Shown: piece by piece, positions 23,906 to 42,681 of the stretch
How positions within the stretch are numbered: position 1 is the first letter of the stretch
Layout of the letters: every line of letters begins with the position of its first letter
Assembly: GCA_965205045.1 (NCBI GenBank)
Contig: OZ242031.1
Coordinates: 4,572,044-4,636,043 of the forward strand
Source: Candidatus Rariloculaceae bacterium
GTDB lineage: Bacteria; Pseudomonadota; Gammaproteobacteria; Steroidobacterales; Rariloculaceae
Reading direction: 5' to 3'
DNA: 64,000 nucleotides
The notes under the pieces: model-generated
Told to the model about the DNA's origin: nothing
Databases searched by the model: none
What the model saw: only the letters and a program-made list of their open reading frames with translations
Translations under genes and position numbers: made by a program

Positions 23906-24658
23906 CTAAGCGGCGAGTGATCCACCTCCTCTGGCTTTCATTTTACGCATGGATTCCCCTTCCAGCGCGATTCGATAGGCATTGTGCACGAGCCGGTCGA
24001 GGATCGCATCGGCGTGGGTGGGTTCTCCGATCATCTTGTGCCAGTGTTCAATGGGCAACTGGCTGGTCACCAGCGTGGAGCGCCGCTCGTGCCGATCCTC
24101 GAGGATCTCCAGCAGTTCACGGCGCTGGGGCGCTGTGAGCTTGGCCAGACCCCAGTCGTCCAAAATGATGACGTCGGTCCGGGCGAGCTTTTTCATGACC
24201 TTCGGATAGCGGCCGTCGCCGTGCGCATAACCCAGTTCATCGAAGAGCCTGGAGAGGCGGCGGTACTGCACGGTGAAGCCGTCGCGGCAGGCCTTGTTGC
24301 CCAACGCGCAGGCGATCCATGACTTGCCCGTGCCGGTCGGCCCGGTGATCAGCAGGTTGAGCTTCTTCCTGATCCATTGCCCGGTGATGAGCCGCGTCAT
24401 CAGGGCCTTGTCCAGGCCCCGGGGGTGCCGGTAATCCAGATCTTCGACGACGGCGGAGTAGCGCAGCCGCGCGATGCGAAGCCGGTACTTCAGCCGCCGC
24501 TCGGCGCGGAAGGCGGCCTCGTGATCGAGCAACAGCCCGAGCCGTTCCTCGAAGCTCAACGCCTCGATCTCGCTCATGTCCTGCTGCTCCATCAGCGCCG
24601 TTCGCATGCCGGTCAGGCGCAGCTCGGCGAGTTTGTCGATGGTGGGGTGATACAACAT
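23906..24658 (-). CDS. istB: IS21 helper ATPase IstB
   Basis: 250 aa. Walker A: LLITGPTGTGKSW. Walker B: VIILDDWG. Typical IstB N-terminus: KLAELRLTGM. Confidence 0.95.
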   Translation of the reverse strand: MLYHPTIDKLAELRLTGMRTALMEQQDMSEIEALSFEERLGLLLDHEAAFRAERRLKYRLRIARLRYSAVVEDLDYRHPRGLDKALMTRLITGQWIRKKLNLLITGPTGTGKSWIACALGNKACRDGFTVQYRRLSRLFDELGYAHGDGRYPKVMKKLARTDVIILDDWGLAKLTAPQRRELLEILEDRHERRSTLVTSQLPIEHWHKMIGEPTHADAILDRLVHNAYRIALEGESMRKMKARGGGSLAA

Positions 24659-24676
24659 GGTGCAGTTCCTCCTGAT

Positions 24677-26215
24677 TTACTTGAAGTAGCCCGGCCCCCT
24701 GAGATTGTGGTGGTCGATGTTCGGCAGTTCCGGGGTGCGCGGCGGCAGCGGTTTGCGGTCCAGCCCGTTCTTCAGGATCGCCGCCACACTCTTGTAGGAG
24801 TACGATCCCAGCGCGATCGCCCGCCGGCAGGCGGCCTCCAGGCGATTCTCGGTGTAGCGTTCGCCGAGCCGCATGATGCCCAGGCAGCTTCGGAAGCCCT
24901 GTTCGGGATGCGGCCTTGCGGCCATGATGCGCTCGACCAGCGCCGCGGTGGACGCACCGACCTGGCCCGCCCAGCGGATGAGCCGCTGCGGCGTCCATTC
25001 GGCCTGGGCGCGATGCCCCCGCGGCATGTGCGCGGTCACGGTGGTGTGCCCGCCGCGGCGGCGCGAACGCAGGTGACTGGCCACGCGCCGGCCCTTGTGC
25101 AGCAGTTCCACGGTGTTCGCGGTGATCCGGGCCTGAAGCTGTTCCTTGATCAACTGGTAAGGCACCGAGTAGTAATGCCGCTCGATCTCCACGTGGTAAT
25201 CCATGTGCACGCGCACCGTTTTCCACTCGGCGTATTCGTAGGGCCGCGGCGGCAACGGGCGCATCGCCGGACGGTCCAGCGTCTCGAACAGCTCCCGCCG
25301 GCACGTGGGCAACTTCTGGAACGGCCGCGCATTGAGCGGCTTGAGCAACTCCCCGATGGCCTCGTTCAGATCGGACAGGCAAAACACCTGCAGGTGCCGC
25401 AGCCGCGCCAGGATCCAGCGCTCCACCAACAACACGCCCGCCTCGGCTTTCGCCTTGTCCCTGGGTTTTTTCGGCCTGGCAGGCAAGATGGCAACCCCGT
25501 AGTGCTCGCCCATCCCCCGGTACGTGCGGTTCAGCCGCGGCTCGTATCGATGCGCCTTGTTCACGCCGCTCTTCAGGTTGTCCGGCACCACGATCTCCGG
25601 CACCGCCCCGAAGTACTCGAACGTGCGCACGTGCGAACCGATCCAGTCCTCCATGGACTGCGACCAGGTCGCCTCCGCGTAGGTGTAGCTGGAGGCGCCC
25701 AGCACGGCCACGAAGACCTGGGCCTCGCGGACCTCGCCCGTGCGCCGGTCGATCACCCCGGCCGTCTGCCCGGCGTAATCCACGAACAGCTTCTCCCCGG
25801 CCCGGTGATCCTGGCGCATCACCACGTCCAGACGCCCGCGCCACTTCTTGTAGTGACGGCAGAAGGTCGCGTATTCGTAGCCGTCCGGATGCGCCGCCTT
25901 GTACTCGTCCCACAGCACCAGCAGCGTCATGCCCTTGCGCTTCATCTCCCGGTTCACCGCCAACCAATCGGGTTGCGGGCGCGGCACGCTCGGCGCCGGC
26001 GGCGGCGGGAACAACCGCCGTTCCAGCTCCGCGTCGTCCAGCTCCGCCGGCAACGGCCAGGACAGCCCGCAGCCTTCGGCCCGCTCGATATACCTCAACA
26101 CCGTCGGGTGGCTCAGACCGCTGCTGCGCGCGATCCGGCGCACGCTCAGCCCCAACTCCCACTTCAAACGCAATATTTCCCTGACTCGTCGCATGGCGAT
26201 TCTGGACCTCGGCAT
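24677..26215 (-). CDS. istA: IS21 transposase IstA
   Basis: N-terminal HTH: MRRVREILRLKWELGLSVRRIARSSGLSHPTVLRY. DDE core: VDYAGQT...AILPARPKKPRDKAKAE. The ORF extends to 26263, so the start is uncertain. Confidence 0.95.
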   Translation of the reverse strand: MPRSRIAMRRVREILRLKWELGLSVRRIARSSGLSHPTVLRYIERAEGCGLSWPLPAELDDAELERRLFPPPPAPSVPRPQPDWLAVNREMKRKGMTLLVLWDEYKAAHPDGYEYATFCRHYKKWRGRLDVVMRQDHRAGEKLFVDYAGQTAGVIDRRTGEVREAQVFVAVLGASSYTYAEATWSQSMEDWIGSHVRTFEYFGAVPEIVVPDNLKSGVNKAHRYEPRLNRTYRGMGEHYGVAILPARPKKPRDKAKAEAGVLLVERWILARLRHLQVFCLSDLNEAIGELLKPLNARPFQKLPTCRRELFETLDRPAMRPLPPRPYEYAEWKTVRVHMDYHVEIERHYYSVPYQLIKEQLQARITANTVELLHKGRRVASHLRSRRRGGHTTVTAHMPRGHRAQAEWTPQRLIRWAGQVGASTAALVERIMAARPHPEQGFRSCLGIMRLGERYTENRLEAACRRAIALGSYSYKSVAAILKNGLDRKPLPPRTPELPNIDHHNLRGPGYFK

Positions 26216-26404
26216 CTGCCTGCCTCCTCTGTTGGAAAACAGGCAGCCTATGGGGTCCGGCATCCACGCCGCGGACGCGCCAGAGAGCGGTACTTTTCAG
26301 CGAGTTTGGGCGGTAACTTTCAGCGAGAATCGCCGGTACATTTGAACGAGAATCGGTGGTACGTTTCGGCGAGATTCACCGGTACATTTGGCTGAGAATA
26401 CGCA

Positions 26405-27628: not shown

Positions 27629-30613
27629 TTACCGATCCGCAACGCCCCTTGCGAGCAACTGGTCAAGGCTGGTGGCTACCTCGTATTTGGCGGGGTTCTC
27701 ACGCACCCCCAGCGCTTGGAAATGCTCCTTGCCACACTTGATCTTGTAGGCTTCGGTGAGGCGCAGATCATCCTGCAGCGTGCTGCCTTTCGTCTCGACC
27801 ACGAGATATAGCCGTTCGGCTTCATCGGTGTCGATCAGAACGGCCCAATCGGGGTTGTAGCTCCCGAGCGGCGTGGGAACCTTGAACCAGCCCGGTAGCT
27901 TGGCATAGACCTTGACGGCGGGGTTGTTCTCCAGGTCGTTCGCGAACTTCGCCTCGGTGCCGTGCTCGTAGATGACCTTCTCGTACACCGATCGTTCGGC
28001 GTCGAGCATGTTGCGCAGGTAGCCCGTTAGTTCCTCCTGTTCGAAGAGTTCCTGCGCGTAGCAGGATCGATCACCGATTCGTTGGTACTTGATGCCGTCC
28101 ACCAGGACACGCCGCTTGCACCGGTTGATGATGCTCGCGGCGAGCTCGATAAACTGCTGCGGGTTGCGCTTGAAGTCGTTGAGGCGCTGACTGCCGATCA
28201 GGATTCTGCAAATGCTGCGCCGGGTGAGCTGCGTCCGGTCCTGCAACTCGGTGAGGATATCCGGTAACTCTATTTCCGGCTCATCGAGTACGACCGTAGC
28301 GGCACCTGTGACCTCGCTTGCCTCCACGCCTGCCTGACCGATGGCGATACCCGCCTTTCGCCATTGCAGCCGGGTCCGGGGGATCGGATCCGAGTTTCGC
28401 AGCTCGCCGATCGATCGCTCCAACAGTTCTTCGTTGTCGAAGGTCACGCGATAGGTGGTCTTGTGCTTGATGCGGTCCCACAGGGCCTTGAATTCGGCAC
28501 CCTCGAGCACTGCCTGGCGCGGGCGGACAGCCCGACGCTCGTCGGCGTTCTTGACCTTGAGACGCCCTGAGAGTTTCCTCAGTACGGCGGCGATGTCCGC
28601 CCTCTGGGCGGCAAATTCTTCCGGCAGGTCCAGAGTATCGTCCCGGATCGCCTTTCGGAGAGAGTCCTGTATCCGCCCCTGTGGGTCGATATAGCCTTGC
28701 GACCGCAAGTGCTCGTACAGGGTCTGCGACTGTTCGAATCCGAGGGCTGCCGTTTCTCCCGCATTGACCGCTACCGGAATCTGCGCAAACTGATGCGGTT
28801 CGACAATGCCGAAGCGGATTCCAGTCTCCTCCTCGATCTCGCGTTGAAGGTTTTCGGCAAACTCTTCGTAGCTCTCTCGGGCGATCACCGTGAGCGTATT
28901 CAATTCGAAACCGTGCAATCGTTCGCCGTCCTGATTGACGCAAAGGCGCAGCCCTCGCCCGATCGTCTGCCGGCGTTCGCGCTCGGTCCGGATGTCGCGC
29001 AGGGCGCAGATCTGGAAGACATTGGGGTTGTCCCATCCCTCGCGCAATGCAGAATGAGAGAAGATGAACTTGAGCGGCTCATCGAGGCTGAGCAGCTTCT
29101 CCTTCTCCTTCATGATCAGGTTGTAGGCGCGCTCGGCGTTGTCTCGATTCGTCTGGTTGTTCTCGGCGGTGTCGATCCATCCGCCCTTCTTGTCAATCGA
29201 GAAGTAACCATCGTGAACCTTCTCCGCCGCCGCGGTGAGGTCGGTCTCTCCGAACAGCGGCCGGTAGACGGGGTGGCGCGCAAACTTCCGGTATTCTTCC
29301 TCGAACATGCGGGCATAGTCGCCCTTGACCGCGTTGCCCGCCTCGTCGTAGCTGCGGTAACGCTCCACCGCGTCGATGAAAAAGAGGCTCAGCACCTTGA
29401 TCTCCTGCGGGCGCAGGCGCTTCTCCTTGTCGAGATGCTCGCGAATGGTTCGCCGGATCATTTGTCGCGTAACGGCGGCGGCGTCCACGTCGCCCCAGGC
29501 TTCGCCATCGCTGAGAAAATGCTCGCCTCCCGGCACGCGGAGTTCGACGAACGCGCTTTCCCGTCCGACCCTGATCTCGCCGATGCGGCAGTCTCGGTAG
29601 ACCGGTCGGCCTGTTGTCTGTTCGAGATCGTCGCCATCCATGACGACCCTCTCACCGCGACGCACTCGTCCGGCACTATCCACATCGAGCTCGACCTTCG
29701 CGCTGATGACGCCGCGTCTGTTGCTTGTCGAGAGCAGCCGGACATAGGGGCGGTTGTGGGCGTCCTCGACAGTCGCGGACGCCACCTCGATCTGCTTGAC
29801 GAGCTTGCGCTCGTAGGCATCGACCGCATCCAGCCGGTAGACCATGTGGTGCCTGTCGACGTGCGTTGCCGAGTAACGCAACGTGCAGAGCGGGTTCATC
29901 GCACCCAAGGCTGCCTTGCCCTGTCCCTTGAGGCCGCCGTCCACGCTCTGCGGTTCGTCCACGATCAGGACAGGCCGGGTGGCGCTGATTAGGTCGATGG
30001 GCTTTTCTCCGCCAGTCTTCTCGCTGTCCTTGTAGAGATTGTTGACAGCCTTCTTGTTGATGGCACCCACTGTCACCACCATGATCTGGATTTGCGGGCT
30101 GGTGGCGAAGTTTCGGACCTGGCCGAGTTTCGCCGAATCGTAGAGAAAGTACTCGAACGGCGTGCCAGAATACAGCGCCCGGAAATGATCGTCGGTTATC
30201 TGCAGCGACTTGTAGACGCCTTCCTTTATCGCGACCGACGGGACCACGATGACGAACTTGGTGAATCCGTAGCGCTTGTTCAGCTCGAAGATCGTGCGCA
30301 GGTAGACGTAGGTCTTGCCGGTGCCGGTCTCCATCTCCACTGTGAAGTCGCCGGAGGCCAGGGACCCGGACGGCGGCAGGCCGTTGCGAAGCTGGATGTC
30401 GTTGAGGTTCGCCAGAATCTCTTCGTCCAGCAAGTTCAGCCGGTTGCCGACACCGAGATTGTTGTGCGCAAAGGCAAGCGCTTCCTGCCTATCCGACGGG
30501 CTCCGGGTAACCGTGAACTCCGTGCGGCAGACCTCCTGGCCGTGGAACAGATCGCACACGGCACCCACCGCCTGCAACTGGAAATCGAGGTTGGGATCGA
30601 AGCGGAGCTTCAT
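27629..30613 (-). CDS. res: Type III restriction enzyme Res subunit (helicase plus PD-(D/E)xK nuclease)
   Basis: 994 aa. METGTGKTYVY (motif I), LIVDEPQS (motif II). C-terminal nuclease: YNPDWAVLID...LYLVVETKGS. GGAG lies before the ATG. Confidence 0.9.
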   Translation of the reverse strand: MKLRFDPNLDFQLQAVGAVCDLFHGQEVCRTEFTVTRSPSDRQEALAFAHNNLGVGNRLNLLDEEILANLNDIQLRNGLPPSGSLASGDFTVEMETGTGKTYVYLRTIFELNKRYGFTKFVIVVPSVAIKEGVYKSLQITDDHFRALYSGTPFEYFLYDSAKLGQVRNFATSPQIQIMVVTVGAINKKAVNNLYKDSEKTGGEKPIDLISATRPVLIVDEPQSVDGGLKGQGKAALGAMNPLCTLRYSATHVDRHHMVYRLDAVDAYERKLVKQIEVASATVEDAHNRPYVRLLSTSNRRGVISAKVELDVDSAGRVRRGERVVMDGDDLEQTTGRPVYRDCRIGEIRVGRESAFVELRVPGGEHFLSDGEAWGDVDAAAVTRQMIRRTIREHLDKEKRLRPQEIKVLSLFFIDAVERYRSYDEAGNAVKGDYARMFEEEYRKFARHPVYRPLFGETDLTAAAEKVHDGYFSIDKKGGWIDTAENNQTNRDNAERAYNLIMKEKEKLLSLDEPLKFIFSHSALREGWDNPNVFQICALRDIRTERERRQTIGRGLRLCVNQDGERLHGFELNTLTVIARESYEEFAENLQREIEEETGIRFGIVEPHQFAQIPVAVNAGETAALGFEQSQTLYEHLRSQGYIDPQGRIQDSLRKAIRDDTLDLPEEFAAQRADIAAVLRKLSGRLKVKNADERRAVRPRQAVLEGAEFKALWDRIKHKTTYRVTFDNEELLERSIGELRNSDPIPRTRLQWRKAGIAIGQAGVEASEVTGAATVVLDEPEIELPDILTELQDRTQLTRRSICRILIGSQRLNDFKRNPQQFIELAASIINRCKRRVLVDGIKYQRIGDRSCYAQELFEQEELTGYLRNMLDAERSVYEKVIYEHGTEAKFANDLENNPAVKVYAKLPGWFKVPTPLGSYNPDWAVLIDTDEAERLYLVVETKGSTLQDDLRLTEAYKIKCGKEHFQALGVRENPAKYEVATSLDQLLARGVADR

Positions 30614-31119
30614 TTCTCCATGTCCGCTCTAAGGCGTGCGTTTAGTTCGCCGGGGACGATACGGCCTTGCTCGATCGCTGATGCCAGGAGCGCCTTCACC
30701 CGCGCCTTGCTTATCCTCCGCCAATGTTTCTCCCTGACGGCCGCATCCACCTTTTGAGCCAGCCTCCCAAGGCGTACGTAATCGAGCTGGCAAATGTCAA
30801 CGTGGCGCTCGGCAAGGTCGGCGACGGGCGTTCGTCCCGGCGAGTCCCTGAGCGGGTGTCCATCGGATCGTAGCGCCTCCTCGTCCACCCAGACGATGTC
30901 CACCTTCGCAACGCGCTCCGCCGCCGCTGCAATCGCCAGCACCGCATCCTCGATGTCAGCGACCGCGCCAGCGTGGCATCTCCAAAACGACAGGGCATCC
31001 TGCCGGGTGCGCAGATCGCCAGTCACCGCGTCCGCTGAAATTTCGCCCCTCGACAAGCCACGCGATAAATTGCGGTCATCGTCCCACTTCGAGCGGGAAA
31101 ACTTCCGGGCAAGAAACAC
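30610..31119 (-). CDS. Hypothetical 169-aa protein, translationally coupled to res
   Basis: GTG 31119 lies 9 nt after the upstream stop. Its own stop overlaps the res ATG (ATGA at 30610..30613). N-terminus: ...SRSKWDDD...ISADAVTGDLRTRQDALSFW. No family recognised. Confidence 0.6.
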   Translation of the reverse strand: MFLARKFSRSKWDDDRNLSRGLSRGEISADAVTGDLRTRQDALSFWRCHAGAVADIEDAVLAIAAAAERVAKVDIVWVDEEALRSDGHPLRDSPGRTPVADLAERHVDICQLDYVRLGRLAQKVDAAVREKHWRRISKARVKALLASAIEQGRIVPGELNARLRADMEK

Positions 31120-31128
31120 GACGGGCGC

Positions 31129-31836
31129 CTACTCGCCGAGATCTTCCAGGACATCTTTAATGTAATCGCGGAGCCACGATACCTTTTCGGTATGGCAACG
31201 AAGTACGTCCTGGACCTCCGTGTCGCCCCATTCCTCCGCAGCCTGCACGGCTGCGTCCCTCATCTCGACATCGTTGGATGCAAGCGCATCTCGCGCAATC
31301 CGAGCTCGCCATGCCGACGTTGCGGGCCGGCGACGGCCAAGGCAGCGTAGAACCGAGGCCGCAATGCCCGGTTGCTCTACATCAATGGCCAGTCCGCGTA
31401 GCCATGAAAGTGCATCATGACTATTGAGCGAAAGCAATGCGTCGTCGATTATCTGCTCCGCTGGATGAGTGATACCATCTTCAACAGGTTCCGATTCCAG
31501 GGCAATTCTCAATCTGGTTTCAAACGATCTCGGGTCAAGGGCCAAGCCGGGGTCCAGGTCCGCAAAAAAGGTTCTGTCAACGACGGCTGGAAAAATCGTC
31601 TCTCCCAGCAAAGCAACAATCGCTGTTCCATCCGCCACATCAACCAACTCTTGCCCTAACTCGAGGAACAGGACCCTGAGGCGGGCTTGTTCCGGCGACG
31701 CTCCCAGCGACTCCCTACCGCTTGGCAAGACGGCCATTCTCTTGTAAGGCACGCTACGGCGTTCAAAACGAGAAATTGAATTGCCATGAATCATCGACGG
31801 CGACCGCGACTCTATTTTCCTGGCTTCAAGCGGCAT
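31129..31836 (-). CDS. Hypothetical 235-aa protein with a HEAT/PBS-lyase-like C-terminal repeat
   Basis: ATG 31836 overlaps the TIGR04255-like gene by 11 nt. C-terminus: ARDALASNDVEMRDAAVQAAEEWGDTEVQDVL. Alternative starts at 31794 and 31737. Confidence 0.55.
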   Translation of the reverse strand: MPLEARKIESRSPSMIHGNSISRFERRSVPYKRMAVLPSGRESLGASPEQARLRVLFLELGQELVDVADGTAIVALLGETIFPAVVDRTFFADLDPGLALDPRSFETRLRIALESEPVEDGITHPAEQIIDDALLSLNSHDALSWLRGLAIDVEQPGIAASVLRCLGRRRPATSAWRARIARDALASNDVEMRDAAVQAAEEWGDTEVQDVLRCHTEKVSWLRDYIKDVLEDLGE

Positions 31837-32596
31837 CGAAAATCCTCCTGGCCTTGTCCGTTACAATTGCTTCGAATGCGGAACCAACTCGTTCGTGAAG
31901 AGCATCGGCCAAGACCGACGCCTGCTCCGAGCCGATTGGTGGTTCCTCGTCTCTTATGGCATCCAGATCGAGGAGACACTCCACGCCGCTCTCCGAAGCG
32001 CCAAGTAGTCCGTACGATACGACCAGTCGTGCTGCATCGTCATATATGTATTCCACCCGGCTGAGGAAATTCGAATAGTCCTCTGGTAGCCCTTCGACCT
32101 TCATGTGTGCACAGTTGAGATACTCTTCGATCTCCACGTTTTGCCCAGGAATCAATATTCGATTGATGTATCGCACCCCAACACGACTGATCGCGCTTCC
32201 TTCGACGATCTTCAAGTAGGCTTCCAGCGCATCCATGATGCGGGGCCTGAACTCCTTCCAACCGCCTCGTTCAATATGTTCAGCGCTTTGGTACGGGCGC
32301 AGCATATGGATGCTGAGCACATTCGGGCCGATGCCGACCAGTCGGTTTCCGTCTTCGGTCACGAGTTGGACCTTTGCCACCCCCTCTTCGTAACTCAGGT
32401 TGGCTGGCTGCCCATCCTTGACGCTGAGTTCGACTTGCAACGCCTTCTGCTCTCTCGACTTGCCGGAATATTCGTTTCCGAGAGCTGCTTGAAGCTTTCC
32501 CGGAATGGTGAAGTCCCAATCCGACCCTGGCACAAATCGAAACTCACAGAACGCTTCCTGTATGGGAGGGCTCCTGTACCTTTTGCGCTGGTTCAT
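31826..32596 (-). CDS. TIGR04255-family uncharacterised protein
   Basis: N-terminus YRSPPIQEAFCEFRFVPGSDWDFTIPGKL and length (256 aa) fit my recollection of TIGR04255. Confidence 0.7.
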   Translation of the reverse strand: MNQRKRYRSPPIQEAFCEFRFVPGSDWDFTIPGKLQAALGNEYSGKSREQKALQVELSVKDGQPANLSYEEGVAKVQLVTEDGNRLVGIGPNVLSIHMLRPYQSAEHIERGGWKEFRPRIMDALEAYLKIVEGSAISRVGVRYINRILIPGQNVEIEEYLNCAHMKVEGLPEDYSNFLSRVEYIYDDAARLVVSYGLLGASESGVECLLDLDAIRDEEPPIGSEQASVLADALHERVGSAFEAIVTDKARRIFDAA

Positions 32597-32697
32597 TGTC
32601 TGCTTTCTCGAGTTGGGTTTCTGTCTACAGGCCCGTTACAGGGACCACTTAACTCCTGCAATCGGAAATCGAGGTCGAGTTTGAAGCGGAGTTTCAT
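32593..32697 (-). pseudogene. Fossil res 5-prime end, now a 34-codon leader ORF overlapping the TIGR04255-like start
   Basis: 32655..32697 matches res 30571..30613 at 36 of 43 nt (hand count). Peptides: MKLRFKLDLDFRLQ versus MKLRFDPNLDFQLQ. Its TGA overlaps ATG 32596 (ATGA). Confidence 0.6.
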
Positions 32698-32740
32698 GGT
32701 TGTGGCCAGCCATTCTTTTCTCAGGATCGGTTGCGAACCG

Positions 32741-32953
32741 TCATGCGTACATCAGGCGCTCGCCCTTCGGCTGGGGAATTGGATCGCCAAATTCCCCAGC
32801 CGTGTCGATCCAGAGTTGCATTGCCTCGTTGACATTTTTCAGCGCATCGTTCTGGCTGTCGCAGTGGGCCACGCAACCCGGAAGCTCCGGCACTTCGGCA
32901 ATAAAGGCCGAGTCCTCGTTGCTCCAGTACAGGATGATCTCGTACTTGTACAT
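32741..32953 (-). CDS. hicB: HicB-family antitoxin (UPF0150-type)
   Basis: MYKYEIILYWSNEDSAFIAEVPELPGCVAHCDSQNDALKNVNEAMQLWIDTAGEFGDPIPQP. Confidence 0.75.
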   Translation of the reverse strand: MYKYEIILYWSNEDSAFIAEVPELPGCVAHCDSQNDALKNVNEAMQLWIDTAGEFGDPIPQPKGERLMYA

Positions 32954-33082
32954 CAACGTTACCTTCCCTATTGATATTTCAGGAAAATCCGACGAAGCTG
33001 CTTGACCTGTTTCGGAAAAGCGAATGTTGGCATCCGACCTTCCGCCGAGGATGGTCTGCAACAGACGCTCATGGCGATTCAT
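32954..33082 (-). pseudogene. hicA: Truncated hicA toxin remnant, fused in frame to the hicB upstream region
   Basis: MNRHERLLQTILGGRSDANIRFSE resembles the first 25 or so residues of the HicA variant MNSKxRKTLxAIFxDPVxAxIxWxDIE. The rest of the toxin is missing. Confidence 0.4.
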
Positions 33083-33108
33083 GGGTTGTCCTCGTCAACT
33101 CTTCGGCA

Positions 33109-35091
33109 TCACAGGCTTCGGACGTTGCCGAGACCGCGCTGCTTGAGGATCTCTGTGAGGTTTGTCTTGGCGACATCGTCGGTGAAGGCGCTGTCGCGAA
33201 ACACGACGGTGGAGTCACCCGCCGGCGCGAGCGCATCATGCCAATTGGCGATGCCCTCCGCCAGCGGCTCCGCTTCGTCGCGGGAGATTGCTTCGTCGAG
33301 GCAGGCAATCAAAGTGCCAGCGCCGACTGAGTGCACGGACTTATCCAAGATGGATCGCGTTTCGATGGGAACGCAGAGATCCAAGCCTTGTTTCAGGAGG
33401 ATTTCATAGAGGATGTCCTGCTCGGTCCGTCCCAGCTCGATATGGTCGAGATCGGAAAGCAGTGCGCCTTCCAGATCGCTTGGCGTCGGGTCCCAAGCCC
33501 GGATGTTCGAAGTATCGAGCTTGAAGACGCGGAAGCCGAGATCACCATGGTAATTGGGATTTTCGTCCCTGATCTTTCTTGTGGCGCGGCGAAGTCTCTC
33601 TTTTGTGAGTGCGGCAATGTTTCGCGGCATTCCAAGTTGGTCGCAAAACTCAACAGCAGATCGATGACTTTTGTTGCGCGGGCTAAGCCGTTCCGGTAAC
33701 TGCACAGAAATATGCCTTCTGGCCCCTCCGTCAATAGAATTCTGAGCCATTACGGCGTGTGCGGTAGTGCCCGAACCAGAGAAAAAATCCAATACGACAT
33801 CATCCGGCTTAGTTGTTATGAATACGCATCGACGCAACAATTCGACTGGTTTAGGATGATCGAATACCCCGCCCATACCCAAACGTCCGAGCTCCTTGGT
33901 TCCCTGTTCGCTGATAAACTCTGTATCAAGCCAAATCGATTTGGGTTTGGTCGTGTTCTTTCTCGATTTTTGATAGACATTCCATTTTCCATCGCGAAGC
34001 TTACGCGCAACCAATACAGGAGAATTATCCTTCAAGGAGAGGCTCGATATTTTTTCTTTACTCCAACGCCAACAGCCATCCTCTCCCTTGCTGTTCTTTG
34101 GGTATACCGCAATAGAATCAGAGTCATTCGTCAGAGAAACCTTGGAGTAGCCACATTCATCCAGTGAATCCTCTCTTGCGTATATTGGAAAAAAAAGATT
34201 CGGCCTATTATGTCGACCAAACTTTGGGTTTCTGTTACGCAATTCCCATAAGTCGAATGAACCGAGAGAATCCTGATAAGGAAGCGAACTATTTCCCTTC
34301 TCCAATTCATTAAGGCCAATACCTTCATCTTTCGAGTAGATCACCAAGAATTCATGTGTTTTGGCGATCTGCTTGTAAGTCTGTCCTCGCTTATTGGATT
34401 GGACAATAATTTGTGCTTGAAATTGTTCTTCGCCAAAAATTTCATCCAATACTTTGCGAATATTGGATACTTCCGTATCATCAATTGAAACTGCAATTAG
34501 CCCATCGACCGTCAAGAGGTTTCGTGCAACTTTGAGTCGAGGATAAATCATACTTAGCCAGTCCGTATGGAATCGGCCTGATGCTTCTGGATTGGATGTT
34601 ACGACGTGGGTGTTCTCATCTATCTGACCTGTGATCGCAAGATAGTTCTTTACGTTGCTACGATAATCGTCCGGATAAATAAAGTCCTTGCCAGTGTTGT
34701 AGGGAGGGTCGATATAGATCAGTTTCACCTTGCCGGCGTAGCTCTTTTGAAGGAGCTTCAGCACTTCCAGGTTGTCGCCTTCTATCATCAGGTTTTGCGT
34801 CGAATTCCAATCTATGCTTTCCTCGGGGCAGGGACGCAGAGTGCCGGTTGACGGTGTGAGCGCGAGTTTCCGCGCACGGCGTTTGCCATGCCAGTTGAGG
34901 CCATACTTCTCCTCTCCTTCGTCGACCGAATCTCCGAGAAGCTGTCGGAGCACGTCGAAATCCACTTTTCCCTCAGTGAATGCTTCGGGGAGCAGACCTT
35001 TCAGTTGTTCAAGGTTGTCGGCGACGATATCCGCCGAGTGCGTTTCCGGGTCGCCGGCGACGATCCTTTCCATAGTGTGCGTCTCTTTCAC
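33109..35091 (-). CDS. mod: Type III-like Mod DNA methyltransferase (beta-class amino-methyltransferase)
   Basis: KLIYIDPPYNTGKDF (motif IV) precedes VLDFFSGSGTTAHAV (motif I). GTG 35091 overlaps the DUF4391 stop; alternative ATG at 35073. Confidence 0.9.
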   Translation of the reverse strand: MKETHTMERIVAGDPETHSADIVADNLEQLKGLLPEAFTEGKVDFDVLRQLLGDSVDEGEEKYGLNWHGKRRARKLALTPSTGTLRPCPEESIDWNSTQNLMIEGDNLEVLKLLQKSYAGKVKLIYIDPPYNTGKDFIYPDDYRSNVKNYLAITGQIDENTHVVTSNPEASGRFHTDWLSMIYPRLKVARNLLTVDGLIAVSIDDTEVSNIRKVLDEIFGEEQFQAQIIVQSNKRGQTYKQIAKTHEFLVIYSKDEGIGLNELEKGNSSLPYQDSLGSFDLWELRNRNPKFGRHNRPNLFFPIYAREDSLDECGYSKVSLTNDSDSIAVYPKNSKGEDGCWRWSKEKISSLSLKDNSPVLVARKLRDGKWNVYQKSRKNTTKPKSIWLDTEFISEQGTKELGRLGMGGVFDHPKPVELLRRCVFITTKPDDVVLDFFSGSGTTAHAVMAQNSIDGGARRHISVQLPERLSPRNKSHRSAVEFCDQLGMPRNIAALTKERLRRATRKIRDENPNYHGDLGFRVFKLDTSNIRAWDPTPSDLEGALLSDLDHIELGRTEQDILYEILLKQGLDLCVPIETRSILDKSVHSVGAGTLIACLDEAISRDEAEPLAEGIANWHDALAPAGDSTVVFRDSAFTDDVAKTNLTEILKQRGLGNVRSL

Positions 35092-35846
35092 AGTCTAGCC
35101 CGCGCCGCGTCCCGGCCGACGCGCAACCGCGCCAGCTCAATATTCATTTCGGCTCGACGGGCCATCTGTTTCTCCTTGCTTGCGGCGGAGTATACATTCG
35201 CGATCCTCTCGCTGAGATACCTGTATTCCCGTAATGCTGCCTCCTTTTCGGAGGCAGCGGCCGCCGTGGGCGGAAGGCGAAAGCCGCCCGTAATCGTGGC
35301 AGCTTGGAGCGCCTGGACCGTAGCGATCCACCCCCGATACAAATCCCGGAGCGTCCCGCGCGGTTGCCTCACTAGGGCAAGGGCGTCGCGAAACGCTGCC
35401 AATGACTCGCCCGGGCAGTCACCGCTGACCCGCGTGGAGACGATCTCACCGTCGATCACGATCTTGTGGGATTCTCCCAGCGAATGGCGCTTGTGGGCCA
35501 GCGAGAGTCCCGGCGTTCCTTCACTCCATGCGATCAGGAGCACCGGATACGGGATGGAACGGTGAATCAATTCGACAAGACGCTCGCTACGTGCGGCGGG
35601 ACGCAGCACGAGCTTCAGAATAGTAATCTCATGGTACTCTCGGTCGGCGTCACGGTATTCGGCAACGCCGACGGTGGCCGGTTTGAGCGCCGCGAGCCAC
35701 CGTAATTCCTCGATACCCTCCCCGATGCGCCGCCGGTCGCCCGCTGCGAAGGTGCCGTTCTCGATGAGCAGAGTCTTGGGAACGCGGCGGTCGACGAGCG
35801 CATCAGCTGGGAGCGCGAGCGCCTCGAAGGGATCGAATGGTGTCAC
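35088..35846 (-). CDS. DUF4391-domain protein
   Basis: RRVPKTLLIENG...IEELRWLAALKPATVGV...YHEITILKLVLR...IHRSIPYPVLLIAW...LSLAHKR fits the DUF4391 pattern as I recall it. GTG start overlaps the helicase stop (GTGA). Confidence 0.7.
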   Translation of the reverse strand: MTPFDPFEALALPADALVDRRVPKTLLIENGTFAAGDRRRIGEGIEELRWLAALKPATVGVAEYRDADREYHEITILKLVLRPAARSERLVELIHRSIPYPVLLIAWSEGTPGLSLAHKRHSLGESHKIVIDGEIVSTRVSGDCPGESLAAFRDALALVRQPRGTLRDLYRGWIATVQALQAATITGGFRLPPTAAAASEKEAALREYRYLSERIANVYSAASKEKQMARRAEMNIELARLRVGRDAARARL

Positions 35847-38701
35847 GACGCTACTCCCGCGAGCACGACGAGAAACGCCACCACCTCAAAGTCGTCCATT
35901 CCGGCGAACTCGCCAGACAAGGCGTGAGTGCCTCCGGGTGAGAAGAGGCTGGCGATGGCGCGCTCCTCACCCTTTCCGACGATGGCAGAAATGGCAGCGG
36001 CAAGCTGACGTTGCACGGCGTGCATTTCCTTCCCCTGGCGGGTGGCCGCGTCGAAATGGCGACAGGCCGAAGCATCAGGTATGTCCTTGCCGACACAAAG
36101 CCGCTTGAGGCGATCGAGAATGGCCTTGGCCTGGATGAACGGCAGCAAAACCGACCCATCCTCACCAACATGGACCAGATAGTGCGGCGCCAGCGGATAG
36201 CCCGGCTGAAACCGGGCATCCGCAGCGGTGCCCTCGGCACGCAGACAGAAGATCACGCCCGGTGGAACGTCGTCGTCTGCCGCAATGGCGATCGCGTGCA
36301 TACCGAGCGGGACCGATTCCAGCGCTTCCGGGTCGGCCCTGCGATAGTCGGCCAGGTCGATCCGAAAATCGGTCAGCGTCAGATCGGCGATGGAGACGCC
36401 CGATGACAAGTCCTCCAGATCGATCACCGCGTCCAAAAGCTTCAGGAGATGCTTGCGTCGGTACGCCAGATCATTCATTGGATCGCCGGACTGCTGCTCG
36501 ATCAGGTTTTCCTCGCCGGTGGCGGAAATATCCAGAAGCACCATGCGCCCGCTCACGCGCTGCTCCAGCCGAAGATATTCCTCCAGTTCCATGTTTGGCC
36601 AAAAGTTGACGAGTTGGATCCGCTCGTTGGGCGAGCCGATGCGGTCGATGCGCCCGAAGCGCTGGATGATGCGCACCGGATTCCAGTGAATGTCGTAGTT
36701 GATGAGCCAGTCGCAGTCCTGCAGGTTCTGACCTTCCGAGATGCAGTCCGTCGCGATCAGAAGATCGATCTCGCCTTCGCTCGCCAGATCGTCCGGACAC
36801 TCCTTGGTTCGAGGCGCGAAGGCGGTAAGGATGGACGCAAGGTCGCGCCGCAGGTCGGGCAATGTCGTCCGATTGCCCCCCGTGCCGGTGACCAAGGCGG
36901 CTTGCACCCCCAGGGAATCCCGCGCCCAGGGCGCCAGCGCGTCGTACAGGTAACGCGCGGTGTCGGCGAAGGCCGTGAACACGATGATCTTTCGGTTCCC
37001 GACGTTGATTGGCTCGCGGCATTTCCGCTCGATCATCGCCCGCAGCTCGGCCAGCTTCGCATCGCGTTCAGCGGTCACCTTGCGGGCTGCGGCGTGCAGC
37101 GTTGCCAGCCGGTCGCGGTCTTCGATCAGGTCCTGGCGCCAACGAACCGGATCGACGTCCTGGAGCAGAACCTTGACCTTGCGGCCGACCAGAAGGCTCT
37201 CAAAGGTCGGATCCTCGATATCGATGTCAGCGATATCGAACTCTTCGAGGTCGGCTTCTTGTGCCTCGATACGCGCAAGCAGGACCTCGATGTCATTGAG
37301 CTGACGCTGCACGGTCAGCGCGAAGGAGGCGACCGAGCTTTCCATGCGCTTCGGCACGTTCGCGCGCAGGAGGTGAACCAAGCTCTCCTCGCGGTCCAGT
37401 TGCCGGAACGTCCCGCCTCCGCGGCGAAGTCGGGTGCTGTATTTCTTGTCATACGCTTCTTGCCTGTGCGCCAATACATAGCGCAGCGGTGCGTACTCGG
37501 TGGCGAATGCAATCTGGTTACGCAGATCCGCCAGCCGATTGTTCACGGGCGTCGCCGTCAGCATGAGGACCCGGGTCTTCACGCCTTCACGCACGATGCG
37601 GCGCATCAGCCGGTCGTAGCGCGTTTCGCTGCCCTGCCGGGGTGATCGCTTGTTGCGGAAGTTATGCGACTCGTCAATGACGACGAGATCGTAGTTGCCC
37701 CAGTTCAAATGGGCCAGGTCGATATCGCCCGACAGGCCGCGGTCGCGCGACAGGTCGGTGTGATTGAGCACATCGTAGTTGAAGCGGTCGCGCGCCAGGA
37801 TGTTGCGGCGGTCGTTGGCGCGGTACAGGGTCCAGTTGTCGCGGAGCCGCTTGGGACAGAGCACCAGAACGCGGTCGTTGCGTAGTTCGTGGTACTTGAT
37901 GATGGCCAACGCCTCGAAGGTTTTTCCGAGCCCAACGCTGTCGGCAATGATGCAACCGCCAAACCGGTCGAGCTTGTCAATCGCACCGACGACTCCGTCG
38001 CGTTGGAAACGGTAGAGTCTCTGCCAGACCTCGGTTTCGCGAATCCCGGTTGCAGATTTGACTACCCGGTCTTCATCGAGTTCGCCACCCTCGATACGAA
38101 ACAGGTGGTGCAGGATCAGCGCGTAGATGCTGGACGGAGCGCGATGTTCGGCAAGGCGACGCAACGTGTCAATTGTCAGCAACTTCGCAGTGTCGTCGCC
38201 CGCCAATCCGGACCACTGCGAATCGAACCATACCCCTAGCCGCTTACATTCTTCGGGCGTTTCGGACGCCTGAATCAAGTTGAGTGGATTGCCGGGTGCG
38301 AGGCCGAGCCCGTCGGTGCTGAACGAGAACGAACCGATCAGAGCCTGTCTCGTGCGACCATCTCCGTTCCGCAGCACGATCGCGCCCTGTGGGACCGCTC
38401 CGTTTGCTTTGCGCACCTCCGCCGATTTCTCGACCCAGTCCGCGCATTGGCCCGCCAGCCAGCGGGTCTGCAGGCGATTACGGGCGGCGCGATCCGCATC
38501 GGTTCCCAGAAGGTCGAGTTCGGCTGCTTCGGGAGGCAGGACGAGTCGCGCACCGGCCATTTTCGCCAATTGTCCGGCAAGCTCTCCAAACGCAAAAAGC
38601 GACAGCGTTCGGGACGCGAGATCGACCCGATTGCCGGTCCCTAGCCAGGGCCGGACGATGTCGACCACGCGGTCGGCGCCGGTATTGGGAACGATCCTCA
38701 T
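35843..38701 (-). CDS. SNF2-family helicase with N- and C-terminal extensions
   Basis: ADSVGLGKTFEA (motif I), LVVIDESHNFRN (motif II), MLTATPVNN (motif III), QRFGRIDRIGS (motif VI). ATG 38701 forms an ATGA overlap with the upstream small ORF. The track ORF starts at 38719. Confidence 0.9.
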   Translation of the reverse strand: MRIVPNTGADRVVDIVRPWLGTGNRVDLASRTLSLFAFGELAGQLAKMAGARLVLPPEAAELDLLGTDADRAARNRLQTRWLAGQCADWVEKSAEVRKANGAVPQGAIVLRNGDGRTRQALIGSFSFSTDGLGLAPGNPLNLIQASETPEECKRLGVWFDSQWSGLAGDDTAKLLTIDTLRRLAEHRAPSSIYALILHHLFRIEGGELDEDRVVKSATGIRETEVWQRLYRFQRDGVVGAIDKLDRFGGCIIADSVGLGKTFEALAIIKYHELRNDRVLVLCPKRLRDNWTLYRANDRRNILARDRFNYDVLNHTDLSRDRGLSGDIDLAHLNWGNYDLVVIDESHNFRNKRSPRQGSETRYDRLMRRIVREGVKTRVLMLTATPVNNRLADLRNQIAFATEYAPLRYVLAHRQEAYDKKYSTRLRRGGGTFRQLDREESLVHLLRANVPKRMESSVASFALTVQRQLNDIEVLLARIEAQEADLEEFDIADIDIEDPTFESLLVGRKVKVLLQDVDPVRWRQDLIEDRDRLATLHAAARKVTAERDAKLAELRAMIERKCREPINVGNRKIIVFTAFADTARYLYDALAPWARDSLGVQAALVTGTGGNRTTLPDLRRDLASILTAFAPRTKECPDDLASEGEIDLLIATDCISEGQNLQDCDWLINYDIHWNPVRIIQRFGRIDRIGSPNERIQLVNFWPNMELEEYLRLEQRVSGRMVLLDISATGEENLIEQQSGDPMNDLAYRRKHLLKLLDAVIDLEDLSSGVSIADLTLTDFRIDLADYRRADPEALESVPLGMHAIAIAADDDVPPGVIFCLRAEGTAADARFQPGYPLAPHYLVHVGEDGSVLLPFIQAKAILDRLKRLCVGKDIPDASACRHFDAATRQGKEMHAVQRQLAAAISAIVGKGEERAIASLFSPGGTHALSGEFAGMDDFEVVAFLVVLAGVAS

Positions 38702-38955
38702 CGTGGCCCGGCGGTCCATCGGTTCAGGGTGGCGACACCGGAGTTGCGGCGTTCGTCGGTACTCTGCGTTACTACTGCAACCCTGTGGCTGGCCGCTGCC
38801 GCACGAATGGCATCTGGCAAGCGATCATCGAGCAGTTCGCCACGCCGGTGGTTTTCCCCCATGATCTGCGCACGTTCCCGGCTGTCAGCCAAGACCCACC
38901 CGACTATCCGGCCCACGAACGGATCGTCGAGATTGCGGGTCGTGATGCCGGCCAT
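38698..38955 (-). CDS. Possible 85-aa leader gene of the helicase operon
   Basis: Acidic/basic protein-like composition. Its stop overlaps the helicase ATG (ATGA at 38698..38701). No family recognised. Confidence 0.3.
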   Translation of the reverse strand: MAGITTRNLDDPFVGRIVGWVLADSRERAQIMGENHRRGELLDDRLPDAIRAAAASHRVAVVTQSTDERRNSGVATLNRWTAGPR

Positions 38956-40460: not shown

Positions 40461-41505
40461 TTCTTGGGCCTCGGCCAAGACCTCCGCCGCCCGACAGCTA
40501 ACCGGCAACCGGTGCTCGCGCCCCGCCACATCCCGTTTCGGCAGGGTCGGCGTAGTCCCGCAGCGACGCCTCCGATTTCGCGTTACGCTAACGTGGGGTC
40601 CCACAAATCCAAGCGCATTTCCGTTACGTGAAAGATTGTTATAACCTTCTGATTTATTTATGTTTTCTATGCGTGTGATCGCACGTAATTTCTCAGATAC
40701 TTACGGGACAGGACACTAGGTCGCACGGTGCAGATTTATCACCGCGGCACCCTATCCGTTCCATCATCTTGCCGCGCTTCCTTCATTGGGTCTAAAATTA
40801 CAAATGGCTTTCTTACCCTTGGGTTATTACAGTCAAATGAATTCTGAGGCCCAACATCCCCAGCAGGCACCCTAAGCCCCATCGCTCTGGTTAACAATTT
40901 CAGGGATTCACTCCGAGAAATGGAGACTATCACTTCAACGCCGACACCAAAATTCGATGCGCGCCGCGTGCGCCCACTGAAGTATTCCGCACGAGACGTT
41001 CAAAGTCCTGCAGAAGCAAAGCAACAAATTCCAAAACAATTTCACCGATGGCGAGAACCTCTTCTCCATCGTGTTCGCTCAATTGCTGATCATTGGCCGT
41101 TCTTGTCGACATCAGACGACAGCCATTTGTTCTGCTGGCCCGCGCAGCTAGGCTTGGTGCTCTCTTTTTCTCGCGGACAAACTCCGAAACCTGTTCGTGC
41201 ACCTCTTTGTACCCTTCCGAAATATCCTCCAAAACTCTATAGACTTCGGCTCTCGCGCCACAGTCGAGGGGTACATCACCGCCTGAAAGCGCGACGCCAT
41301 CGCAGGTGCGAGTTTTTTGATGCTTCGCGGGAGAAAACGGCCACACGCCTCATCCAGAGCCACGCACGAGGAAACCGCATCTCCCGTCGTTGCCCTTATC
41401 TCAGTGACCAACGTCAACCTTGGCCGACTGCAGATTCAAATCCCATTTGCCCAAATTGCACCAGCAATTTCCACACAATCAAGCTTATTTGTACTGAGGA
41501 GCACA

Positions 41506-42681
41506 ATGCGTTACTTGGCTCGACTTAAGGATGATCCAGCAACCTCCGCATTGGCATTCGCTGACGCCCGCGTTGACGCAACAAACCGTGTACTGCAGGT
41601 TGATAAGATCTCAAAATTTCAGCAAAGCGTCGACTCCCGAGGGCAAATGGCTGATCGACTGCGGGAACATGACATGTCCTTCGTTGCCCATCCGATTGCG
41701 CAAACCCCGATCAGTGGCATCGCGGTCGTCGATGGAACCCATGAGGCAGTATCGGAGCTGGGAATTTCGTTTCCCGAATACGAAATCATCGCCGACGCAC
41801 CCATTTCTCTCATCAGCCCAGAACAAACCGACACACATCTCACGTCCGACGACACCCTCGACCTTTGGCATTTGGACAAAGTTTTCGCTAGCAGTAATCG
41901 CGAGGACGACGGTGGTGAGGATGTGAGGGTGGCTGTGCTAGACACTGGTGTTAGTAACGTGCCGGAGATCGTCGGCCGAATATCCGGCCATCAGGCTTTG
42001 GACGTTAACAATTGGCAGGTCTCAACAACCACACAAGGCGATACCCACGGTCATGGTACGCACGTTAGCGGCTTGATTTGTGGGGAACGTGTAGGCATCG
42101 CCCCAGGCGCCCAAGTTGAGAGCGTCACGATGATCCCCAACGGCACGGGAAACATGAGCAACTTTATATTGGCGATGGAATGGGTGGGCGCGCAGCCGGA
42201 AGTATCGATTCTCAACATGTCAGCGGGCATTGTCGGCTACAGGCCCGGGATGCTTTACATTATCGAAATACTTCAGCGTCTTGGCGTGCTCACGGTGATC
42301 GCCACTGGAAATGAAGGTGTACACCAAACTCGCAGTCCAGGCAACTACAGCTCACCGATTTCCGTCGGCGCCAGCACGAAAGAAGACAAGATAGCCTCCT
42401 TCAGCAGTGGCGCCGACATGACGATCGACGGCGTCAATTACACGGTGCCTGACTTAGTCGCGCCTGGCAAGGAGGTTACATCATGCCTCATGAATGGAGG
42501 ATATGCCGCGTGGAACGGTACATCCATGGCCACTCCAGTTGTGGCAGGCATTGCTGCACTCCATATCCACCACAATCCACAGATTCCAGTGTTGGATCTA
42601 CGCGAAAAAATTCTGAACTCTTGCCGGGACCTTGGGTTCCGAGCAAACCGGCAAGGAGTCGGATTGATCCAAGTCCGATAA
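41506..42681 (+). CDS. S8-family (subtilisin-like) serine peptidase, no signal peptide
   Basis: GAGGA lies 6 nt before ATG 41506. Catalytic triad context: VAVLDTGV, HGHGTHVSG, NGTSMATPVVAG. N-terminus MRYLARLKDDPATS is not hydrophobic. Confidence 0.85.
   Translation: MRYLARLKDDPATSALAFADARVDATNRVLQVDKISKFQQSVDSRGQMADRLREHDMSFVAHPIAQTPISGIAVVDGTHEAVSELGISFPEYEIIADAPISLISPEQTDTHLTSDDTLDLWHLDKVFASSNREDDGGEDVRVAVLDTGVSNVPEIVGRISGHQALDVNNWQVSTTTQGDTHGHGTHVSGLICGERVGIAPGAQVESVTMIPNGTGNMSNFILAMEWVGAQPEVSILNMSAGIVGYRPGMLYIIEILQRLGVLTVIATGNEGVHQTRSPGNYSSPISVGASTKEDKIASFSSGADMTIDGVNYTVPDLVAPGKEVTSCLMNGGYAAWNGTSMATPVVAGIAALHIHHNPQIPVLDLREKILNSCRDLGFRANRQGVGLIQVR

Follow-up and report, generated by a model that had tools for sequence, protein, structure and literature searches.

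SNF2 ATPases recur in methylation-based defense systems, including DISARM, BREX type 3, ARMADA and Hma-like systems, and the literature that we searched gives no mechanistic role for them in any of these. Related proteins in which an HKD nuclease is joined to an SNF2 motor have been described in type-2 BREX-related systems (10.1101/2025.10.09.681413), and in lactococcal AbiR, a system with a PLD-like-SNF2 protein (AbiRc), a methylase is required to prevent toxicity (PMC13064643). Here we analyze a stretch of 64,000 nucleotides (nt) from Candidatus Rariloculaceae bacterium (the window; contig OZ242031.1 of assembly GCA_965205045.1, positions 4,572,044-4,636,043), which contains an operon for an SNF2 ATPase, a protein of the DUF4391 family and the Mod methyltransferase and Res nuclease of a type III restriction-modification (R-M) system. 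The four-gene set is a real, widely spread and horizontally mobile unit and not a chance neighborhood; the family is of real interest, and the copy in the window is a partly damaged example of it.

Every open reading frame (ORF) reported for the operon lies on the minus strand (Table 1), as an earlier note on this DNA had stated, and the three 4-nt start/stop overlaps that it described were found exactly where it had placed them (ATGA at 38701..38698 and GTGA at both 35846..35843 and 35091..35088). The SNF2 ORF spans 35843-38719 (958 amino acids, aa), and the start codon used by the family, the ATG at 38701, gives a protein of 952 aa. The mod gene is upstream of res on the same strand, with 2.5 kb of co-oriented cargo, comprising four smaller ORFs, between them in the window. 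A scan for promoters and terminators returned nothing above shuffled expectation.

The distribution of the four genes was determined by scanning a DUF4391 alignment against one genome per species, which yielded 80 loci, and by deriving the gene order at each locus from tblastn searches with the window proteins; 87 DUF4391 loci were counted in all. Genes for SNF2, Mod and Res accompanied DUF4391 in the same order and on the same strand at 71 of the 87, a further 12 were cut by a contig end and four lacked a partner, and the full SNF2-DUF4391-Mod-Res order was present in 71 of the 75 loci with enough flanking DNA. The 80 loci belong to Alpha-, Beta- and Gammaproteobacteria, Acidobacteria, Latescibacterota, Nitrospira, Spirochaetia, Cyanobacteria, Chlorobi, Planctomycetes, Myxococcota and others. 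Translational coupling of SNF2, DUF4391 and Mod is the usual arrangement, and most loci have a DUF4391 stop codon that abuts or overlaps the start of mod (29 of 74 with an offset of 0 or -1). It could be argued that SNF2 with DUF4391 and an ordinary type III R-M system are two independent systems that merely share defense islands, given that defense genes cluster, that Mod and Res of the same clade can occur alone and that other types of SNF2 also adjoin this Mod/Res clade. However, the order and strand are fixed in loci of unrelated phyla, start/stop overlaps join DUF4391 to Mod, a single locus among the 87 (L020) has SNF2 and DUF4391 without Mod and Res, and neither of the extra proteins has a recognizable effector activity, such that we consider independence highly improbable. 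The view of the earlier note that the genes form a single R-M-like unit beyond textbook type III is thus borne out for the family, with the four genes co-inherited in about 95% of evaluable loci.

The same order was found on every sampled plasmid of 10 genera that carries the PLD-type SNF2 described below, one of them archaeal (Methanomethylovorans) and the others from E. coli, Listeria monocytogenes, Enterococcus faecium, Bacillus cereus, Vibrio, Shewanella, Weissella, Acinetobacter (twice) and Paraburkholderia. The DUF4391 slot of the Listeria plasmid holds a 185-aa "hypothetical protein" that is a short, divergent DUF4391 (hhalign, probability 90%), and on a Desulforapulum plasmid the genes for a helix-turn-helix (HTH) protein, SNF2, DUF4391 and Mod are annotated and Res is not. 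The system was detected in 10 of 5426 complete E. coli genomes, with nine of the 10 copies plasmid-borne, and an intact operon is present on E. coli plasmid pHS30-1 (L096, 8001-17029); it was not found in 50,697 GenBank phage records, and only 11 IMG/VR contigs carry it. In many hosts a gene for a small HTH regulator precedes the operon, in the position that is occupied in other loci, including the window, by a vapC gene or its remnant. On an Acinetobacter gerneri plasmid (L087, 1-16533) the operon directly follows genes for TnsA, a Mu-type transposase, TniB and TniQ, which suggests that a Tn7-like transposon carries it as cargo.

The set as a whole has, as far as we could establish, no name. 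PADLOC, NCBIfam and the searched literature identify only the Mod/Res pair, in keeping with the statement of the earlier note that it knew of no role for the SNF2 and DUF4391 proteins. The PADLOC comparison that it had recommended showed that the best match of the SNF2 protein is an unnamed candidate family, and neither PADLOC-DB 2.0 nor NCBIfam holds a model for DUF4391. A full-text search for "DUF4391" returned irrelevant papers only, and no SNF2-DUF4391-Mod-Res module was described in the literature searched, although REBASE and many subscription journals were outside its scope and an earlier mention is possible. Given the co-inheritance, the lack of a tool that names the set and the lack of a description in that literature, the proposal of a distinct unit stands at the level of the family.

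At the level of sequence, nothing that marks a working type III enzyme is missing from Mod and Res. Mod matches N6_N4_Mtase (PF01555, 3e-34) and, over its full length, the PADLOC model MTase_III (1e-210), and the order of its motifs, with DPPY128 upstream of FSGSG437, is that of the beta class to which the earlier note had assigned it. The target-recognition region of Mod could not be aligned to that of the closest relative of the locus, which is on a metagenome scaffold (L095), and the flanks on either side are 86-91% identical between the two; the region also has a guanine-plus-cytosine (GC) content of 0.46, against ~0.62 around it, and together these features indicate a swapped specificity domain of foreign origin. 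Res matches ResIII, RE_endonuc (1e-33) and, over its full length, PADLOC REase_III (1320 bits), and it is 93.5% identical to Res of L095. Its motifs include GTGKT97, DEPQ219 and PD921...E940-T-K942, so that the earlier description of a full Res with an intact PD-(D/E)xK motif, encoded after the inserted genes, was accurate. Against the NCBIfam equivalog for the EcoP1/P15 enzymes (PRK15483) Res scored 357.5 bits, under the cut-off of 564, and it was accordingly placed in a separate Res clade.

The SNF2 protein contains the Pfam domains SNF2-rel_dom and Helicase_C and has kept ATPase motifs I, II, III and VI (GLGKT263, DESH349, TATP388 and QRFGRIDR686). Its best PADLOC match is C3a139, the "HKD+Snf2" candidate (1e-88), followed by DrmD. 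An AlphaFold2 (AF2) model of aa 1-233, built on an alignment of 42 sequences (pLDDT, the predicted value of the local distance difference test, 85), was compared to the PDB using Foldseek and matched the phospholipase D (PLD) superfamily, namely SauUSI (E 1e-5), BJ-TSA-9, Nuc, NucT, PLD4, BfiI and Tdp1. The HxK of the catalytic HxK(x)4D motif is absent from the window protein, and alignments of 8 and 42 family members have no conserved H or K in this domain and a near-invariant Gln; one member of the family reaches Pfam PLDc_2 at 0.0036. Based on the lack of any conserved His or Lys, the PLD fold is catalytically dead and the SNF2 protein cannot be the nuclease, and a dead PLD fold fits the match to "HKD+Snf2". 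The C-terminal ~240 residues of the protein are strongly conserved and match no Pfam family. A GapR/UPF0335-like stretch at aa ~860-930 (alignment A4, 144-210) had an E value of 0.02, which is below significance, and was not relied on.

The earlier note had described this protein as a 950-aa SNF2 helicase, which is correct as to the family, but the window protein is a derivative of a 1065-aa protein from which 113 aa have been deleted. One hundred of its 120 closest homologs are exactly 1065 aa long and the window's alone has 952 aa. Relative to a 95%-identical protein (P0272) it lacks residues 403-515 as one clean 113-residue gap, located directly after motif III between LTATPVNN...AFATE and YAPLRY, and the SNF2 protein of L095 is intact at 1065 aa. 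Archaeal, Firmicute and E. coli homologs retain the lost segment (..LLDRLTIARSRRHLEKYYG..FPERLKPINV..) at 42-60% identity; because it is conserved in such distant homologs, it is an ancestral part of the motor that was deleted in the window, and the converse event, a 339-bp insertion in all other members, is ruled out. From the architecture of SNF2 enzymes, a loss of 113 aa after motif III would remove the region that joins the two ATPase lobes, and the SNF2 protein of the window is, on this sequence evidence, probably inactive or severely altered. Pfam coverage is uninformative on the effect of the deletion, as intact SNF2 also matches only the start of SNF2-rel_dom.

The assignment of the second protein to DUF4391 was upheld by a full-length match to PF14335 (196.9 bits, above the gathering threshold of 29.9 bits). 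An AF2 model (pLDDT 88) predicts an alpha/beta domain of ~160 residues followed by three long C-terminal helices, for which Foldseek found no fold match in the PDB or BFVD, and there was likewise no sequence-profile match to the PDB. The family comprises ~1068 representative clusters, nearly all of them of stand-alone proteins of ~250 aa. In an alignment of 52 sequences, with identity down to 20%, P13 and E73 are invariant, and R21, K24, W50, K55, Y71, H95, R96, P99-Y100-P101, S115, K119, R120, Y170, E225, Q227 and N235 are near-invariant. A reading of DUF4391 as a PD-(D/E)xK protein, prompted by E73, H95, K119 and R120, found no support.

The window and L095 are separated by ~0.2 synonymous substitutions per site, and the ratios of nonsynonymous to synonymous substitution rates (dN/dS) between them were 0.09-0.125 for SNF2, 0.135 for DUF4391 and 0.147 for Res, the last computed from a protein-guided alignment owing to an indel. 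The similarity of these values implies that SNF2 and DUF4391 are as constrained as the Res nuclease. Across the family, a rough heuristic for ORF integrity, which is noisy for Mod and Res, scored 73 of 81 evaluable SNF2 genes and 82 of 89 DUF4391 genes as intact. In L095 the DUF4391 gene (13195-13970) has a premature stop at codon 181, which may be an error of the metagenome consensus, and Mod and Res are intact, such that the window and L095 each have a lesion in SNF2 or DUF4391 and neither has one in Mod or Res. In a mirror-tree comparison of distance matrices over 46 complete loci, the helical tail of DUF4391 co-varied weakly with the PLD and C-terminal domains of SNF2 (partial r ~0.3), as did the N-terminal domain of DUF4391 with the N-terminus of Mod (0.28), which would lend slight support to DUF4391 as an adaptor. 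The mean distances were 0.42 for the PLD domain and 0.39-0.47 for DUF4391, which therefore evolve 2-3 times faster than the core ATPase lobes (0.15-0.22), as would be expected of interaction or sensing surfaces.

In view of these results, the reading that we favor, and to which we give about an even chance, is that the type III Mod and Res proteins restrict DNA and that SNF2 and DUF4391 are an accessory ATP-driven motor that boosts or broadens restriction, is dispensable for self-protection and is probably disabled in the window. Mod and Res would act as in a classical type III system, with methylation of one strand of an asymmetric site and ATP-triggered cutting of unmethylated foreign DNA by Res. 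SNF2-DUF4391 would be a translocase on double-stranded DNA, tethered to the Mod/Res complex by DUF4391 and possibly by the dead PLD domain as well, that would pull the DNA or clear it, for example of bound proteins or roadblocks. Active communication between sites may in this way replace passive sliding, and either activity would strengthen or broaden restriction. In the window, this accessory arm is probably inactive and the locus would operate as a plain type III system with cargo genes. That the pair is not needed for self-protection is suggested by the occurrence of a broken SNF2 in the window, and of a nonsense mutation in DUF4391 in L095, beside intact Mod and Res. The narrower proposal that DUF4391 physically couples the nuclease-dead PLD-SNF2 translocase to Mod and Res, and that communication between sites, or clearing of protected phage DNA, is driven by SNF2 in place of sliding, is tentative, and we regard it as rather unlikely.

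Several points weigh against the favored reading. Physical contact among SNF2, DUF4391, Mod and Res is presumed, a motor role is ascribed to the SNF2 protein by analogy with the general behavior of SNF2 enzymes, and the window copy, with its damaged SNF2, cannot itself show function. The charged residues E73, H95, R96, K119 and R120 of DUF4391 could equally form a catalytic site and not an adaptor surface, and the mirror-tree correlations are small and come without a significance test. The accessory arm is also not obligatory, as Mod and Res of the same clade occur without the pair: on a Thiodictyon plasmid, a Res of this clade (53% identity) is accompanied only by Mod and a RhuM cargo gene. 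Plasmids of Cupriavidus (L092, 2838-10991) and Rhizobium (L094, 1648-10976) similarly have an HTH gene, a different SNF2 gene and same-clade mod and res, without DUF4391; the alternative SNF2 is ~949 aa long, has no PLD domain and is 24% identical to the window protein over the motor only. These three plasmids indicate that, despite the co-inheritance of SNF2 and DUF4391 with Mod and Res in 71 of 75 loci, the pair is not strictly obligatory. DUF4391 was present in every context of a PLD-type SNF2 that was examined and was missing from the two plasmids with a non-PLD SNF2, which implies that it goes specifically with the PLD type, and this type III clade appears to have acquired an SNF2 motor on two or more occasions. 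Fusion of a DUF4391 into the Cupriavidus SNF2 was not supported, since hhalign gave a probability of only ~2% for DUF4391, or the SNF2 C-terminus, against the last 400 aa of that protein.

A different function for the pair would be that of a guard or regulator, which might sense or counter anti-restriction proteins of phages, or might set when and how far methylation or restriction acts as the mobile element enters a new host. This would fit the high mobility of the system (plasmids, a Tn7-like cargo position, many phyla), the small HTH regulators ahead of the operon and the status of the PLD domain and DUF4391 as the fastest-evolving parts, as expected of surfaces in an arms race. Nevertheless, a broken SNF2 or DUF4391 beside an intact Res speaks against the pair being essential for protection from self-restriction, and there is no toxin, nuclease or protease effector domain in either protein, leading us to judge a guard function distinctly unlikely and to retain the accessory motor as the favored reading.

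Table 1. Features of the SNF2-DUF4391-Mod-Res operon in the window, in the direction of transcription.
Feature	Coordinates	Strand	Basis or remark
vapC (PIN-domain) toxin-gene 3' remnant, 85-aa ORF	38698..38955	minus	PIN homology
SNF2 ATPase, 952 aa	35843..38701	minus	PLD-fold aa 1-~170, SNF2 motor, C-terminal domain
339-bp in-frame deletion junction in SNF2 gene	37495..37496	minus	Window lacks L095 11207-11545
DUF4391 protein, 252 aa, intact	35088..35846	minus	PF14335, E 6e-58
Type III Mod, beta-class N6-adenine methyltransferase, 660 aa	33109..35091	minus	N6_N4_Mtase, MTase_III
Mod target-recognition region	33544..34623	minus	Exchanged relative to L095
hicA'-hicB fusion, 113 aa	32741..33082	minus	hicB proper ~32741-32953, intact
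Diverged duplicate of first ~45 bp of res	32655..32697	minus	Upstream edge of cassette
TIGR04255-family protein, 256 aa, first cassette gene	31826..32596	minus	NCBIfam TIGR04255, 2e-35
p235, 235 aa, no family assigned	31129..31836	minus	Sub-threshold HEAT_2 only
p169, 169 aa, no family assigned	30610..31119	minus	Stop overlaps res start (ATGA)
Type III Res, 994 aa, intact	27629..30613	minus	SF2 (superfamily 2) ATPase and C-terminal PD-(D/E)xK

The 85-aa ORF at the head of the operon, which the earlier note took for a possible leader gene, is instead what remains of the 3' half of a vapC toxin gene. Its product shares 55% identity with residues 72-149 of complete 149-aa PIN proteins (Pfam PIN, 4e-16), whose genes in three loci (L007, L009 and L013) overlap the SNF2 start by the same ATGA, and the N-terminal catalytic half of the PIN protein is missing in the window. 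Neither a vapB gene nor the 5' half of vapC was found upstream in the window. The same remnant is present in L095, and shorter remnants occur in L001, L006, L008 and L026.

The junction between mod and res is a recurrent hot spot for cargo: the two genes are separated by no more than 23 nt in 24 of 74 loci and by 50-6575 nt in the other 50, that is, in about two thirds. Clustering of the ORFs in these gaps revealed cargo that recurs and is co-oriented with the operon: a hicA-hicB pair is present in 15-17 loci, a 371-aa HATPase_c_4/Fic-like_C protein in eight, and a trio of TIGR04255, p235 and p169 in five, the window included; a pair of small proteins in four loci resembles DUF4258-type toxin-antitoxin genes by eye. 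Cargo at this junction on plasmids includes RhuM and DUF262 proteins. In the window, the ORF nearest to mod matches the Pfam families HicB_lk_antitox and UPF0150. L095 has, at 16082-16548, separate genes for an 82-aa HicA-like protein with a GSHH motif (Pfam HicA_toxin, 3.5e-4 and 21 bits, under the 27-bit cut-off) and a 70-aa HicB, and the loss of 119 bp of hicA in the window has removed the GSHH region and left a truncated HicA-like toxin fused to hicB. The ~2-kb trio that separates hicB from res is a gain of the window relative to L095. A segment of L095 (16592-16634) aligns at two places in the window, 32655-32697 and 30613-30571, and this duplicated scar of the res 5' end fits an exchange of cassettes through recombination inside res. 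The TIGR04255 gene is also found in the gap of L005, L019 and L032; p235 accompanies TIGR04255 and p169 in L005, L011, L019 and L032, and in these same four loci p169 is likewise immediately upstream of res. The cassette had no PADLOC match and only one plasmid homolog, in Thermus.

Upstream of the operon, on the opposite strand, are a subtilase (Peptidase_S8) gene at 41317-42681 and several ORFs without an assigned family, and ~1.4 kb downstream of res is an IS21-family element (23906-26263; istA 24677-26263, istB 23906-24658). The GC content is 0.53-0.63 across ~26-44 kb of the window and 0.65-0.70 in the flanks, which is consistent with an acquired island. The number of lesions in and around the locus (the vapC remnant, the 339-bp SNF2 deletion, the 119-bp hicA deletion, the scar of the res 5' end and the nearby IS21) would be compatible with a decaying relic that has no current function in this genome. 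Yet DUF4391, Mod, hicB and Res are full-length, intact ORFs, dN/dS relative to L095 is 0.06-0.17, and the SNF2 deletion is in frame and has spared all ATPase motifs, so that we think it decidedly improbable that the locus is a relic.

The pairing of an SNF2 motor with type III Mod and Res proteins, which have been studied both structurally and mechanistically, offers a clean means to approach the role of SNF2 by genetics and biochemistry. The module spans Acidobacteria to Firmicutes as well as an archaeal plasmid, and its carriage on plasmids of E. coli, Listeria, Enterococcus and B. cereus means that it bears on barriers to gene transfer in clinical and industrial bacteria. DUF4391 would gain its first functional context, and the Mod-Res junction proves to be a place where toxin-antitoxin and other cargo genes dock repeatedly. 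If the coupling by DUF4391 is true, the module would represent a class of its own among ATP-dependent restriction systems and, on the E. coli plasmids, the simplest available model for the role of SNF2 in DISARM, BREX-3 and ARMADA.

Among the systems to which the locus can be compared, the HKD-SNF2 effectors (C3a139, the type-2 BREX-related proteins and AbiRc) have the same N-terminal PLD fold followed by an SNF2 motor and are likewise associated with methylases. However, the catalytic His and Lys are absent throughout the present SNF2 family, for which reason identity with these effectors was rejected, and their partners are DUF3780/PglX-type methylases or sigma-like/ParB-like proteins, whereas here they are DUF4391 and type III Mod and Res. 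The type IV enzyme SauUSI (PDB 7clg), the best structural match of the SNF2 N-terminal domain, has the same order of PLD domain, SF2 motor and C-terminal domain, but its PLD nuclease is active, its helicase is not of the SNF2 type, it reads modified cytosine and it acts alone, in contrast to a dead PLD fold encoded in a methylase operon. BREX type 3 and ARMADA (BrxHII/ArmA with a PglX-like methylase) similarly couple an SNF2 ATPase to a self-marking methylase, although their SNF2 protein is RapA-like with a TUDOR domain, the methylase is of another class, and DUF4391 and a type III Res are lacking. Hma, ARMADA II, BREX-3, BREX-related type 2 and MORC-associated R-M were all rejected as identities after their descriptions had been read.

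The resemblance to DISARM class 1 (DrmD, DrmMI, DrmA/DrmB and the PLD protein DrmC) lies in the combination of an SNF2 protein, an adenine methylase and a PLD module, and the SNF2 protein is partly similar to DrmD (1e-47). The present locus differs in having a type III Mod as its methylase, a PLD module that is both fused and catalytically dead, and a Res nuclease. The SNF2 protein scored 163 bits against NCBIfam DrmD (NF038317), far under the cut-off of 610, and tblastn searches with B. cereus queries found DrmA and DrmB only in L090 and not in the window, the 80 genome loci or any other locus searched; DISARM was rejected as an identity on these grounds. In L090, the B. cereus plasmid pMRY14-0057_1 (3143-16876), drmA and a DUF1998 drmB are directly upstream of the four genes, which may be either a composite system or mere adjacency.

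Such resemblances raise the alternative that SNF2, DUF4391 and Mod are the core of a system like DISARM, BREX or ARMADA, in which methylation marks self and SNF2 senses unmethylated DNA, and that Res was recruited as the effector in place of a PLD nuclease that had decayed in an ancestral HKD-SNF2 enzyme. Consistent with it are the tight coupling of SNF2, DUF4391 and Mod and the cargo that splits Mod from Res in 50 of 74 loci, the PADLOC ranking of "HKD+Snf2" first and DrmD next together with the dead PLD fold, the drmA and drmB genes on B. cereus plasmids, the Desulforapulum plasmid without an annotated Res, and the precedent of AbiR, where a methylase is required against the toxicity of a PLD-like-SNF2 system (PMC13064643). 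Given, on the other side, that Mod and Res match type III models at full length and with high scores and that the Mod/Res pair also occurs without SNF2, and given the low DrmD score and the restriction of DrmA and DrmB to B. cereus among the loci searched, we consider such an SNF2-centered system unlikely, and continue to favor type III restriction by Mod and Res with SNF2-DUF4391 as an accessory.

The classical type III enzymes (EcoP1I and EcoP15I, Mod2Res1/2) share with the present locus a beta-class Mod that has an internal recognition domain and is encoded upstream of Res, and a Res with SF2 ATPase motifs and a C-terminal PD-(D/E)xK. Cleavage in type III systems takes a pair of asymmetric, unmethylated sites in inverse orientation. 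They differ from it in that SNF2 and DUF4391 precede mod in ~95% of the relatives, so that the two-subunit definition fails, and in that the Mod-Res junction takes cargo in two thirds of the loci. The four-gene system is an undescribed version of type III R-M with two extra genes.

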